Shown here: one piece after another, positions 10,381 through 48,847 of the stretch | How the letters are laid out: every line of letters starts with the position of its first letter | How positions within the stretch are numbered: the stretch's first letter is position 1 | Assembly (NCBI GenBank): GCA_965204345.1 | Contig: OZ241981.1 | Coordinates: 320,001-384,000 of the forward strand | DNA: 64,000 nucleotides | DNA from: Nitrosopumilus sp. | Lineage (GTDB): Archaea > Thermoproteota > Nitrososphaeria > Nitrososphaerales > Nitrosopumilaceae | Direction: 5' to 3' | Made by a program: the position numbers and the translations under genes | The notes under the pieces: generated by a model | Database searches by the model: none | What the model was told of the DNA's origin: nothing | What the model saw: the letters and a program-made list of their open reading frames with translations, nothing else

Positions 10381-10710
10381 CTATTTTTTAGATCTTGATT
10401 TGTTATTTGAATAGATTTTATACAAAATTATAATCAAGATGCCAGAATTTATCAAAAACAGTATCAAGATAACAAAAGTATTAGGGATACATTGGGGATG
10501 GTATGGTATGAATGCACCAAGTCCAAAGATTGCAACATCTTGAACTACTAAATGTCCAAAGAGTGTTGATGCTGCAGCAACAATAATAACACCAACATAG
10601 CCAAAAATTAAACCCAATATGCGCTCACACTATACATTCCCTTTCTCGCAGCAACAATAATAACACCAACATAGCCAAAAATTAATCTAAAAAAAGGGGT
10701 TAGGATGCAT
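10381..10710 (-). pseudogene. Small membrane protein gene disrupted by a 36-bp insertion with 38-bp duplication and a T7 slip
   Basis: MHPNPFF(RL)IFGYVGVIIVAA can be restored from the ATG at 10710 by removing one T and the insert plus one repeat copy; two TM segments. Confidence 0.6.
10574..10685. repeat. Exact 38-bp direct repeat flanking a unique 36-bp insert
   Basis: GCAGCAACAATAATAACACCAACATAGCCAAAAATTAA at 10574-10611 and 10648-10685. Confidence 0.95.
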
Positions 10711-10711
10711 A

Positions 10712-11464
10712 TTACCATGCACCGTATACGAAATCTACATCGACATCATACCAAGTTGTGCCACCCTGAATGTTGCTGAATGCATGAAAACCTCTTGCAT
10801 CATCTACTCCATTCAGATAATAATGATTCGTACCATATTGAACATCACCATGTATGAATTCATGTGGTACAAAACACCAGTAGCTATAGTACCAGTTGGC
10901 ATGCCAATTTACATCAATAACACTTGGAGTTACAGTTGCAGAAAATACAGCATAATTACTTCCAAAACAAGCTGAGTATCTATCGTACAGACTTAGATTA
11001 TTTGGAGTGCCTATCTCTCTATCATGCAAATCAATACGAGCACCATTAATGTCTGAATGACCTGAACCATCACCAACAGCTCCTGTAGAAACATCTGTGA
11101 ATGTTTCATGGATACCAAGGTTGTGGTTAATCAAAGTGTATGTATCATTATCATTGACAAGTATTCTGAAATTCTCTGCACTTTGTTTTTCTCCGTCTAT
11201 CTTGGTTACTGTCTTCACATGGTATTTTTGATCTGAAATCTGACGAGTTTTTGTGACAACAGATACAGTTTCACCATCAAAAGTCTTTTCTTGGATGTTC
11301 TTACCTGGTTGAGATATGAGATTTTCTATATATTCTACTACAACAGGATCGTAGATTGTTGTTTGTTCTTCAGCTGATGCATCGTTAATACTTAATGGCA
11401 ATATAATTGCAGCAATCAGGGATGTAAACAGAATTGTTTTTGTTTTATTTGTTATGTTTTTCAT
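10712..11464 (-). CDS. Secreted hypothetical protein
   Basis: Signal peptide KTKTILFTSLIAAIILPLS of a type common in Nitrosopumilaceae accessory proteins; beta-rich C-terminus with a Cys pair. Confidence 0.75.
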   Translation of the reverse strand: MKNITNKTKTILFTSLIAAIILPLSINDASAEEQTTIYDPVVVEYIENLISQPGKNIQEKTFDGETVSVVTKTRQISDQKYHVKTVTKIDGEKQSAENFRILVNDNDTYTLINHNLGIHETFTDVSTGAVGDGSGHSDINGARIDLHDREIGTPNNLSLYDRYSACFGSNYAVFSATVTPSVIDVNWHANWYYSYWCFVPHEFIHGDVQYGTNHYYLNGVDDARGFHAFSNIQGGTTWYDVDVDFVYGAW

Positions 11465-11851
11465 GTTATTACTAACCCCTATGTGCTTTCGTTATTTAAG
11501 CAGTTTTATTGAGTTACGGCATGCTTCTTTTTCAGCCAATTTACGGTGCATGCCAAATTTTTTTATTCTCCATAAACATTATTTCTGCAGTTTCAAACCC
11601 TTCAGGAAATTCCTAATGTTGGCAATCAGTAGCGTCAGTGCAAAGAATGTAATGATAAATTTGAGCCATAGTAAGAAAATGTTGTCTAAACAGGCCAAAA
11701 AAACGTCGAAGATAAATTAGATAATTTAAGAAAAACATCTCTTCGCAATACATCGGCAGACAAAGATGGAATTGACATCAAGGATGATAATCATTTTGAC
11801 AATTCAAAACGCAAAATTACAAATATATAAAAAAATAAATCAAAAATTGGG

Positions 11852-12453: not shown

Positions 12454-13800
12454 TTAGGAAACTAGTTTGAGCCAACAGCTATCCTTTCCGTTAGACAGCC
12501 AGCTAAACTCATGCAGCCTTAGAATATCATTAATCTCACGCCAGATGTGTTTGTCGATCCAGCGTTTTGGTGTTATTTTTATGGAATCGCCTTCATTAAC
12601 TATTGTCACTTTCTTGACTCTCTTTCCCAGATTGTTTACAAAGTTTGGCTTGTTTCCAGCCTGTTTTATCAAATCCAGATATTTGTCTTGACCTAGATTC
12701 AAGTCAATATTTGCAGCTTGAGCCGGTGTCTTGCCATCTAGTCCCTGATGGGGCTTTACAAAGTTATGATTGATTTTGAGTAGCTCTGCAAAGTTTTGTG
12801 CAGATTCATCATTGCCCAGCCCACGTCTGGCTTTTAGCCTCTCTCTAATCTCATTGTGGTATCTCTCTATTGGCCTGTTAACAAAGCCGTCCTTGAGTGA
12901 CCTTGTCCTGATGTGTGCAGCTCTGTTTTCAAATTCTTTTCTGATTGCTTCCTGATACGAGTTTAGCGAATCAGTCAGAACATAGTTTGGATTCCGTGAT
13001 GTGATTTTCTTGCCACTTGCAATAATCTTTCTTGCATCTGCAATCTCTCTTTTCTTTGAGACCTCAGTAGCTATCAGGAATCTGGTCTTTGGATCAATTA
13101 TGCTCCAAAGCCAGTCATGGAATCCCTTGCCTGTCTTCTTTGTATTTTTGACATTCAAATACATCTCATCCAAGCTCCACACATCAGATAATTCGGGATA
13201 AAATGATTCCACATATTCCTTGATTATGAGGGTGTATTTCTTTATCCAGTTTCTCACAGACACATGACTAATCTCAACCTCGTGTGCAGAGTAGACATGC
13301 CGTGCAATATTTCTGTATGAGACACCAGACGTGACCAGATTAAGACACTCGGAAATTATTTTTGGATCAGATGAAACTTTGGAGAATCCGTTCTCGCCCA
13401 GGATGAATTTACGATTACACTGCTTGCAGCCATATTTTTGCCTCTTTGTACCGTTCTTTAGTTTCCTAAATCCGCGTTTGACTATTGTAGTGGAGCTGCA
13501 TTTTGGACAGACTTGAGGCTGTTCTGTTCTCTCTACCCTGCTTTGGGTTTGAATGGCATCCTGTAATATGATGCAAGATTCAATATGCTTGCAGTGCTTG
13601 TCATCTAATTTTCTTAACCTGTAATGAAAGTCTCTGCACTCACAAGTCCACACATCTGCATCCTGTAATTTTTTGATGTTATATTTTTTATCTGAGTTTT
13701 GTGATTTTACAACATAGTGATTGCTTGTAATCTTTCTAATCGAGTTTGTCTTTGCGAAGATCTGTGCTGCCTTTTGTTTTCTTTTACTGTTTGTGTACAT
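12454..13800 (-). CDS. IS6-like DDE transposase with N-terminal SWIM and Zn-ribbon domains
   Basis: CECRDF...CKHI (SWIM), CPKC...CKQC, HTH, WSLDE / LTDS / IERYHNE catalytic triad, HQGLDGKTPA. Confidence 0.88.
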   Translation of the reverse strand: MYTNSKRKQKAAQIFAKTNSIRKITSNHYVVKSQNSDKKYNIKKLQDADVWTCECRDFHYRLRKLDDKHCKHIESCIILQDAIQTQSRVERTEQPQVCPKCSSTTIVKRGFRKLKNGTKRQKYGCKQCNRKFILGENGFSKVSSDPKIISECLNLVTSGVSYRNIARHVYSAHEVEISHVSVRNWIKKYTLIIKEYVESFYPELSDVWSLDEMYLNVKNTKKTGKGFHDWLWSIIDPKTRFLIATEVSKKREIADARKIIASGKKITSRNPNYVLTDSLNSYQEAIRKEFENRAAHIRTRSLKDGFVNRPIERYHNEIRERLKARRGLGNDESAQNFAELLKINHNFVKPHQGLDGKTPAQAANIDLNLGQDKYLDLIKQAGNKPNFVNNLGKRVKKVTIVNEGDSIKITPKRWIDKHIWREINDILRLHEFSWLSNGKDSCWLKLVS

Positions 13801-43616: not shown

Positions 43617-44441
43617 TCAAAGGGAATTTCCTGTAAGTTTCTCATAGGCAGCAACATAGCGTTGCGTCATCTTTGAAATAATTTCCTCAGGAATCAGCGG
43701 GGCAACAGGTTCCTTTCCTGCATCTCTAGCATCATCAAATTGTTTTTGATAGCCATTTGCAGTTAGCCAGTCACGCAGTAGCTGCTTATCGTAGGCCTCT
43801 TGTATTTTTCCAGCCTCAAAGGAATCCTTTGACCACAAACGATACTCGTCCGGACCAATAGAATCACCCAGAGTAATTTGCCCATCCAATAAACCAAACT
43901 CTAATTTTAAATCAGCCAAAATGAATCCGACATTATCAGCAATCCTAGCCATTTTTTGATAAATTTCAAGGGATGTTTTTTCCAGCCAACAGTATTGTTC
44001 TTCGGTAACTAAATTCATCTCCAAGGATTTTGTTTTGTTTATTGGAACATCATGTTCAGATTTAGTAGTGGGATCAAAGATGGGCATGGGTAGTTTTGCA
44101 GCCAAAGTAGTATCGGTTCCATCAGGAATTGTGACTGTGCCTTTTTTCCATCTGCTAACTAAACTTCCGTAAAAGTAGCCCCGAACTATACATTCTATTG
44201 GAAGCATTTTCATTTTTTTTACAACAATTTCAGTATCAGATTCCCGTCTGAGAAAATGATTTGGTACAGATAATTTGCTGAACCAAAATTCTGCAAACTT
44301 GCAAAGAATTTCACCCTTTCTAGGAATATCCTGCTTGAATTTTACATCATAAGCTGATACCCTGTCTGAGAATTTGAATAAAATTGTAGAATCACCCACA
44401 TCATAAAGATCCTTTACTTTACCGGAGGCAAGGAATTTCAA
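43617..44441 (-). CDS. purC: SAICAR synthetase
   Basis: SGKVKDLY, DRVSAYD, ECIVRGY, LADLKLEFG, YDKQLLRDW. Confidence 0.96.
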   Translation of the reverse strand: MKFLASGKVKDLYDVGDSTILFKFSDRVSAYDVKFKQDIPRKGEILCKFAEFWFSKLSVPNHFLRRESDTEIVVKKMKMLPIECIVRGYFYGSLVSRWKKGTVTIPDGTDTTLAAKLPMPIFDPTTKSEHDVPINKTKSLEMNLVTEEQYCWLEKTSLEIYQKMARIADNVGFILADLKLEFGLLDGQITLGDSIGPDEYRLWSKDSFEAGKIQEAYDKQLLRDWLTANGYQKQFDDARDAGKEPVAPLIPEEIISKMTQRYVAAYEKLTGNSL

Positions 44442-48273: not shown

Positions 48274-48720
48274 TTATTCTCTGCTAAAAGAATACGAGGA
48301 TTGTACAAATCCCAAATGCCTGTAGAATTCATGCGCGTCCTTTCGCTGATTTCCAGATTCCAATCTGATTCTATGGCAGTTTTTTTCTTTTGCAAGAACA
48401 ATGCAAGAATTGACTAGTTTCTTGCCGATGCCGTGATTTTGATACTTTTCATCAACAACTAGCTCGGGAATATACATCTCCAAGGTATGTTGGTTTAATC
48501 TTGTCAAAAACATCACACTTGCCATGCCAACAATTTTTACATCGTCAAGTTCTGCAACAAAAACTGCCTTGTCTGAGTCCTTGAGATACTTTGTAACCAG
48601 CTTTCGAAACATCTCAACATCAGAGTCTTTTTGAGGAGCGGGTCGTCCAAGATCATATAACAGTCCAAGAAGAACAGGAATATCCCTCTGAGATGCTTTT
48701 CTGACTAGTACATTATCCAT
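48274..48720 (-). CDS. GNAT family N-acetyltransferase
   Basis: LVVDEKYQNHGIGKKL acetyl-CoA motif, AHEFYRHLGF. Confidence 0.92.
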   Translation of the reverse strand: MDNVLVRKASQRDIPVLLGLLYDLGRPAPQKDSDVEMFRKLVTKYLKDSDKAVFVAELDDVKIVGMASVMFLTRLNQHTLEMYIPELVVDEKYQNHGIGKKLVNSCIVLAKEKNCHRIRLESGNQRKDAHEFYRHLGFVQSSYSFSRE

Positions 48721-48742: not shown

Positions 48743-48847
48743 TTAAGAATTAGATTCTCACAAACATGGCATTTGAGATGGATGTAGAGGTTGATCTAGT
48801 AGGGTATGACTTTTAAGAATTAGATTCTCACAAACATGGCATTTGAG
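48743..48847. repeat. Exact 35-bp direct repeat flanking a unique 35-bp insert
   Basis: TTAAGAATTAGATTCTCACAAACATGGCATTTGAG at 48743-48777 and 48813-48847. Confidence 0.95.

Follow-up and report, generated by a model that had tools for sequence, protein, structure and literature searches.

Spacer-sized inserts within target duplications in a Nitrosopumilus genome, beginning with a broken small membrane-protein gene

RESULTS

A 74-bp addition in a small membrane-protein gene

The window, meaning the whole stretch of 64,000 nucleotides that was analyzed, corresponds to C1:320001-384000 of a 2.12-Mb Nitrosopumilus assembly with 99.7% completeness. It contains a perfect 38-bp direct repeat (copy 1 at 10574 to 10611, copy 2 at 10648 to 10685; 38/38 matches, 74 bp from start to start) around a 36-nt insert at 10612 to 10647 that is unlike the repeat and unique within the window. 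In 100 shuffles, neither the repeat nor the insert had a chance match. Read on the minus strand, the repeat of this locus (site 1) encodes L-I-F-G-Y-V-G-V-I-I-V-A-A, a peptide found in both open reading frames (ORFs) listed there. One is the 5′ fragment of a small membrane-protein gene (10608 to 10718, minus strand), a 36-aa ORF with its ATG at 10718, which continues through copy 2 and stops inside the insert. The other is the 3′ remainder of the same gene (10381 to 10617, minus strand), a 78-aa ORF whose TTG “start” lies within the insert and is an artefact. The small gene forms an operon-like pair with an intact upstream gene of 250 aa (10712 to 11464, minus strand), homologs of which occur in the congeners G119 and G009 at 48 to 56% identity; no Pfam family was found for either gene. 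The small membrane-protein gene is truncated by the 74-bp addition, which shifts its frame. An earlier note, made from the letters of the window, had described a 36-bp insert within a 38-bp duplication in coding sequence and a disrupted gene; both descriptions are confirmed, with repeat and insert as quoted.

Deletion of 10612 to 10685 in silico yields an 87-codon ORF from the ATG at 10718, which overlaps the stop codon of the upstream gene (ATGGTAA), and no further change is needed. The same note had proposed that the gene is restored by removing the insert, one repeat copy and one T of the T7 run at 10689 to 10695 (minus strand; A7 on the plus strand), giving an ORF from the ATG at 10710 after the upstream stop. 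Restoration by removal of insert and repeat holds, but the loss of a T is dispensable for the frame from 10718; the ATG at 10710 lies in a different frame and requires that T7 become T6. The run sets which start codon is in frame, and the contigs of four public runs contained no length variant of it. The homologs in G119 and G009 start M-x-P-x-S/P-F-F right after the upstream stop, and their N termini resemble the version read from 10710 with T6. The small gene may thus start at either the ATG at 10718 or that at 10710 with T6.

Homologs and wild populations

With the 78-aa ORF as a query, matches with an E value of ≤0.01 were obtained in 12 of 121 same-genus genomes, this genome included, the best being those in G123 (2.6e-11) and G018 (1.1e-5). 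The restored ORF gave tblastn matches in six of seven same-genus loci at 30 to 40% identity, in alignments that cross the junction, and homologs of the small gene were found in G123, G018, G136, G002, G007, and G119. At the protein level, these homologs contain neither the duplication nor the insert at the junction, and the small-gene homolog of G119 is immediately preceded by a homolog of the 250-aa gene (48% identity). Since the homologs read uninterrupted across the junction, the 38-bp repeat is duplicated coding target rather than a CRISPR repeat. This had been proposed from the sequence of the locus, together with a search for uninterrupted homologs in related genomes as its check, and that search bore it out.

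The site 1 stretch was found in sponge metagenomes and one organism-labelled data set, which belong to four studies (2010-2024). In the contigs of four runs from these four studies, the 96-bp piece spanning repeat, insert, and repeat (10582 to 10677) was present at the depth of its two flanks (7.3 versus 9.3 and 8.3, 200 versus 187 and 201, 258 versus 254 and 267, and 9.9 versus 5.6 and 9.9). Thus, the scar is common to closely related populations. One single nucleotide polymorphism, at 10882, separates three of the four runs from the window. No joint skipping the 74 bp was present in the contigs of the four runs, which are 31-mer contigs and as such cannot show an empty allele of a 38-bp repeat. 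An exact search of metagenome contigs for the empty allele, with repeat copy 2 plus the right flank, returned 0 matches.

The site 1 insert derives from a chromosomal gene

Together with the preceding A, the insert is identical at 35 of 37 positions to a segment of the same chromosome (G000:C1:1275228-1275264), ∼945 kb away from site 1 and within a 638-aa gene with NFACT_N and NFACT-R_1 domains. This protospacer alignment suggests that the last A of repeat copy 1 may be part of the spacer, in which case the duplication would measure 37 bp. The relatives G004, G014, and G012 match the insert at 31 to 32 of the 37 positions (84 to 89% in the BLAST rows). Both differences between insert and source are C-to-T on the plus strand, and both are nonsynonymous, at residues E and G that are invariant in 4/4 genomes. 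Changes at invariant residues make a functional homolog from a related strain improbable as the donor. The exact donor had 0 matches in metagenome contigs and 0 in viral contigs; a virome match, which the earlier note had suggested, did not materialize, the source being the chromosomal NFACT gene instead.

Similar scars in the window and the genome

When the whole window was scanned for close direct repeats, two more scars emerged, with sequences unrelated to site 1. At site 2 (48743 to 48847), a 35-bp duplication surrounds a 35-bp insert; the scar lies upstream of a GNAT acetyltransferase gene (48274 to 48720, minus strand), 23 bp from its start. This insert had no source elsewhere in the genome, 0 matches in viral contigs, and none in 150 other genomes of the genus at up to 3 mismatches. 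Site 3 (62764 to 62868) is intergenic and likewise consists of a 35-bp duplication around a 35-bp insert. The latter (62799 to 62833) had no source in its own genome and 0 matches in viral contigs; it matches a chromosomal place in a congener (G119:C1:1276333-1276367) with 3 mismatches, and its donor would be either a lost gene or the DNA of a relative.

The genome was scanned for isolated two-copy repeats (at least 28 of 32 positions matching, spacing of 40 to 130), and 37 of the 63 that were found had a spacing of 69 to 75, with a sparse background at other spacings. After curation, 28 of 44 inspected rows represented 24 independent clean events on unrelated targets, with repeats of 31 to 42 bp (21 perfect and 3 with 1 to 2 mismatches), inserts of 30 to 38 bp, and repeat-plus-insert sums of 66 to 75 bp. 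The remaining 16 of 44 rows were dropped before this count. Seven had repeats under 31 nt (110352, 284502, 905180, C8:746, 1400070, 2017394, and 1974847), and some of these may be old events; one had a 41-nt insert and a sum of 76 (193702); four belonged to a longer repeat family (250568, C6:30990, 253451, and C6:33874); and four were tandem or collagen-like coding repeats (519476, 1474537, 1682090, and C5:7931).

For none of the 21 inserts used as queries was there a match other than the insert itself, its copies in later segmental duplications, or a protospacer. Near-full-length chromosomal matches were found for 5 of the 21 (36/36, 36/36, 34/35, 35/37, and 31/33). In these self-derived events, 5 of 177 positions differ between inserts and sources, all of them transitions, while the repeat pairs show 0 differences in 193 positions, a pattern not easily put down to simple drift after insertion. 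No flank common to the five self protospacers, the orientation of which is not known, was recognizable by eye as a protospacer-adjacent motif (PAM). The self-protospacer alignments place the true spacer at 34 to 39 nt and the true duplication at 33 to 37 nt, and the trade-off between repeat and insert length arises because the boundaries are ambiguous, chance identity shifting bases from insert to repeat. Taking this genome and the congener G086 (see below) together, 3 of the 14 spacer-target junction ends with known protospacers share an identity of at least 3 nt. Hairpin-forming inserts were rejected (mean of −1.25 versus −1.50 kcal/mol for random segments), as was a transposon or MITE with target-site duplication, since the inserts share no sequence and have no hairpin tendency.

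All six events located in frames of at least 250 codons add a multiple of three. The frame stays open in five of them (e.g., 1076 to 1101 codons), and the sixth is cas1. Additions of 22 to 25 codons in frame were seen at C1:162808, 167191, 499885, 754439, and 1546947, in ORFs of 290 to 1869 codons; site 1 and several other scars break their frames. Three events are present in two or three copies inside segmental duplications, which must be later than the respective integrations since the same scar is repeated in the copies. One such scar occurs three times with a 3,598-bp spacing (C1:1406775, 1410373, and 1413971), and two others occur twice each in inverted orientation (1419699/1424895 and 1765720/1848731). 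A further scar, at C1:486377-486486, overlaps the 3′ end of tRNA-Ser(CGA), and its duplication keeps one tRNA copy whole, as with elements integrating into tRNA genes.

Scars in the CRISPR array and in cas1

A single Cas1-family gene was found (Cas1 match of 230.5 bits), in a cas1-cas2-cas4 row that adjoins a small array. The array comprises four canonical spacers of 34 to 38 nt plus an off-register unit; its units measure 72, 68, 70, and 72 bp, its conserved repeat is 34 nt, and the reverse complement of the canonical repeat ends in ATTGAAAC. The off-register scar is located in the leader-proximal (first) repeat (C1:1886549-1886660), where ∼26 nt of the repeat, together with the end of a spacer, have been duplicated; the insert reproduces C1:1209415-1209450 perfectly over 36 nt. 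Another scar lies in cas1 itself (C1:1888134-1888243), as a 38-bp duplication around a 34-bp insert that brought in two stop codons. When this 72-bp unit is taken out in silico, the frame spans 337 codons, and its product can be aligned over the whole length to the intact G086 Cas1 (62% identity, one 1-aa gap). Because the removal restores the full-length frame, the scar is the sole lesion of cas1. Judged by its reading frame, cas1 is now broken, and present integrase activity would not be claimable.

The effector profiles RAMP, Cas6_C, DevR, and Cas5d had 0 matches in the genome, and tblastn with the Cas8b-like protein, Cas7, Cas5, and a putative Cas3 HD piece of G086 found none there. Searched with the Cas proteins of G086, the genome yielded only Cas1, Cas2, Cas4, a C-terminal fragment of Cas6b, and one weak helicase-like match to Cas3 (24% identity) elsewhere on the chromosome. 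The Cas6b fragment (C1:1884292-1884660) has 63% identity to residues 92 to 214 of the G086 protein and lies on the strand opposite cas1-cas2-cas4, an arrangement that shows the apparent loss of the effector module by rearrangement. With cas1-cas2-cas4 kept and effector genes not found, the locus is thus a decayed type I-B locus, an adaptation module without interference. Absent interference would lift the autoimmune cost of self-derived spacers.

Congeners with and without Cas1

Searched as a whole genome, the congener G086 has a complete type I-B locus with an array of 67 repeats of exactly 36 nt, in which 63 of the 66 intervals are units of 70 to 72 bp (range, 70 to 75 bp). It carries seven isolated events, with perfect repeats of 35 to 37 nt and sums of 69 to 73, and two of the seven inserts have perfect self protospacers. 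Three of the events (61661, 879346, and 1174536) leave no open frame across ORFs of 263 to 879 codons. At another G086 scar (43914-44022; L041-L125), the “repeat” ends in GATTGAAAC like a CRISPR repeat; this scar could represent what is left of an array or the beginning of a second one. The Cas1-less congener G010 had 0 clean events in the 960 kb examined of 1,360 kb (71%), with one borderline unit (31-nt repeat, 1 mismatch, sum of 70) and one plain tandem repeat, and the comparison with and without Cas1 consists of one genome of each kind (G086 and G010). Across the family, Cas1-family matches occur in 104 of 301 genomes, a tally that includes casposase-like genes and five unpublished genomes.

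Target choice

A GT start at one end was seen in 9 of 23 duplications, versus 2.22 expected, and 2 of 5,000 controls reached 9 in this post hoc test. Read inward, the end dinucleotides of 46 ends include GT nine times and CT nine times, the same as in the canonical repeat (GT...AG), a comparison that was also post hoc. The duplication at site 1 ends in GC... and ...TTAA (inward GC and TT), unlike the termini of the canonical repeat, and the 38-mer as a whole has no significant likeness to that repeat. Overall likeness of the targets to the canonical repeat was not significantly elevated (14.43 versus 14.10 ± 0.37 for random windows; 193 of 1,000 controls equaled or exceeded it). With trimming, a less strict GTT...CAG score gave only a marginal difference (3.87 versus 3.52 ± 0.18; equaled or exceeded by 80 of 2,000 controls).

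DISCUSSION

Off-target spacer integration as the probable origin of site 1

We attribute site 1, with a probability of about 0.88, to off-target spacer integration by Cas1-Cas2(-Cas4), with a target duplication of ∼36 bp set by the ruler of the complex. In such an event, a type I-B adaptation complex of Cas1-Cas2, probably with Cas4, would capture a 36- to 37-bp prespacer matching the NFACT gene and join its two 3′ ends to opposite strands of the small membrane-protein gene, ∼37 to 38 bp apart, and not at the leader-repeat junction. This stagger would equal the span over which the complex normally measures a CRISPR repeat. Gap repair would then duplicate the 37 to 38 bp between the two cuts, and the 74 added bases would shift the frame and truncate the gene. 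What the data show directly are the repeat-insert geometry, where the insert came from, the intact homologs, the parallel scars, and the cas genes; catalysis by Cas1-Cas2 and the order of the chemical steps at site 1 are what we infer from the analysis, the order being that of established knowledge of Cas1-Cas2 integration.

Off-target integration is favored because the 74-bp addition matches the array unit (68 to 72 bp; 70 to 72 bp in G086), because the same geometry recurs on unrelated targets (24 in this genome and 7 in G086), and because the inserts behave like spacers, with self matches for 5 of 21 here and 2 of 7 in G086. It is also favored by the presence of one event in the first repeat of the array and one in cas1, by GT/CT termini that mimic the canonical repeat (post hoc), and by the contrast between seven events in G086 with its complete type I-B locus and 0 clean events in 960 kb of the Cas1-less G010. 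At site 1 itself, the homologs are uninterrupted and the filled form stands at flank depth in four runs. The points counted against it are the noncanonical ends of site 1, the targets that are not repeat-like overall, the PAM that was not seen, and the mutations in the inserts. Further points are that an empty allele of this species did not turn up, that the contrast by Cas1 compares one genome with another, 71% of the Cas1-less one having been covered and one borderline candidate seen there, and that cas1 is at present broken.

The scars might instead come from a Cas-independent process, by repair or template switching, that adds ∼72 nt as a short genomic copy with a compensating duplication of the target. 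In keeping with this, the sum of repeat and insert (66 to 75) is far steadier than its parts (31 to 42 and 30 to 38), several inserts copy the genome’s own DNA, 3 of the 14 junction ends share at least 3 nt, and one borderline unit occurs in G010, which lacks Cas1. The constant sum, however, is explained by boundary ambiguity alone. The scar unit equals the canonical array unit in both this genome and G086, one event struck the array and one cas1, the GT/CT termini are like those of the canonical repeat, and the inserts are not hairpins by folding energy; the lack of clean events in 960 kb of the Cas1-less congener, a small sample, points the same way. We judge a Cas-independent process improbable.

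Still smaller is the probability that site 1 has nothing to do with the other sites and came from replication slippage or from a single duplication event that picked up filler DNA. Repair accidents can give direct repeats around filler, and the ends of site 1 are not like the canonical ones, but 24 events of one narrow geometry stand out from a sparse background of spacings, the source of the insert is ∼945 kb distant, and G086 has scars of this geometry too. Equally little credence is due to the idea that site 1 is a working mini CRISPR array within a gene, with the 38-mer as a genuine repeat. Its layout is indeed repeat-spacer-repeat, and two sources consider that off-target integration may create arrays de novo (bioRxiv 10.1101/148544 and PMC13142298), yet the 38-mer is single-copy coding sequence in the homologs and unrelated to the canonical repeat, there is a single spacer only, and the Cas6, Cas7, Cas5, and Cas3 needed for processing or use were not found in the genome apart from the Cas6b fragment.

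Off-target integration by the adaptation complex may also reflect something broader, for which we see about even odds: the type I-B adaptation module could be intrinsically promiscuous in vivo, accepting nearly any target with a ∼36-bp ruler and a preference for GT/CT only. It would then act as a standing mutagen that knocks out genes, adds in-frame loops of 22 to 25 codons to large proteins whose frames stay open, and seeds potential new repeats, and it would have run in an effector-less sponge symbiont until it struck and inactivated cas1. If this is true, such genomes are natural, datable records of integrase error and of array birth.

Relation to known systems

Noncanonical spacer integration and neo-CRISPR loci in Escherichia coli were reportedly described by Nivala, Shipman and Church (2018, Nat Microbiol 3:310). 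In the type I-E system of E. coli, overexpressed Cas1-Cas2 is described as integrating off target and yielding “neo-CRISPR” loci (PMC7054753, bioRxiv 10.1101/148544, PMC6698737, and PMC11788318), and the available text of one of these sources mentions “circumstantial evidence” in two other species (bioRxiv 10.1101/148544). As far as these texts extend, the neo-CRISPR loci resemble the scars reported here in having a spacer-length insert, a repeat-length duplication of a non-CRISPR target, and an adaptation integrase acting outside the array. They are products of laboratory overexpression, whereas the scars are natural, fixed in wild populations, and number 24 in one genome. The present system also differs from type I-E in being type I-B with Cas4, in its ∼36-bp ruler, and in its targets, which lie in genes, a tRNA 3′ end, and cas1 and are not repeat-like overall. 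For the Cas1-Cas2 of Pyrococcus furiosus in vitro, off-target sites are said to share features of repeat borders (PMC6698737). The enrichment of GT and CT at the two ends is a likeness to those sites. On the part of that work available to us, the P. furiosus targets are on plasmids in vitro with several determinants over ∼30 bp, in contrast to terminal dinucleotides only, absent at site 1, in this genome.

Isolated CRISPR arrays reportedly can arise by off-target acquisition at targets that resemble repeats (Shmakov et al., 2020, CRISPR J 3:535). Off-target acquisition is given as one origin of isolated arrays in an excerpted source (PMC13142298), which has in common with our reading a natural origin for repeat-spacer-repeat units far from cas genes. 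The repeats of isolated arrays, to the extent that the source covers them, match those of cas-adjacent arrays, whereas the units here each have a “repeat” unrelated to the others, carry only one spacer, and are often located within coding sequence. A Cas1-family integrase that makes target-site duplications in the same archaeal group is also known from casposons. Their target-site duplications are ∼14 to 15 bp long. Casposon integration is carried out by Cas1-like casposases, with family 1 in Nitrosopumilus, according to the sections consulted of two papers (PMC8464041 and PMC4046053). As described there, casposons are kilobase-scale elements with terminal inverted repeats and short duplications, in contrast to the unrelated inserts of 30 to 38 bp and duplications of ∼36 bp in this genome, which has only one Cas1-family gene.

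Neither single-spacer scars across a genome nor a self-hit in cas1 came up for Nitrosopumilus in literature searches or in the available text of a survey of thaumarchaeal mobile elements (PMC6563490), a negative on which the full texts and supplements of two key papers could bear. What seems new is not the kind of mechanism, which has precedents, but the scale on which it operates in nature and what follows from it. Off-target integration has been shown mainly by overexpression of Cas1-Cas2 or in vitro, and its natural frequency and cost are an open point. This genome offers a countable natural record, with 24 events and their targets, donors for 5 of 21 inserts, survivorship by frame, and an integration in cas1, and G086, with its full system, has the same process at a lower count. 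The two records allow direct estimates of the fidelity of the integrase, of its ruler, and of the minimal target determinants. They also point to a concrete way in which repeats could arise de novo and proteins could gain insertions of 24 codons. For annotation, they account for odd “mini-CRISPR” calls and broken genes in ammonia-oxidizing archaea.

Other observations near site 1

In all four public runs, the depth over 11386 to 11600 of the window rose to as much as ∼20 times that of the flanks, an excess that marks this segment as a multicopy repeat. It adjoins an IS240-type DDE transposase gene (12454 to 13800, minus strand). In two of the runs, contigs connect 10251 with 11460 across opposite strands, a joint suggestive of an inversion variant.
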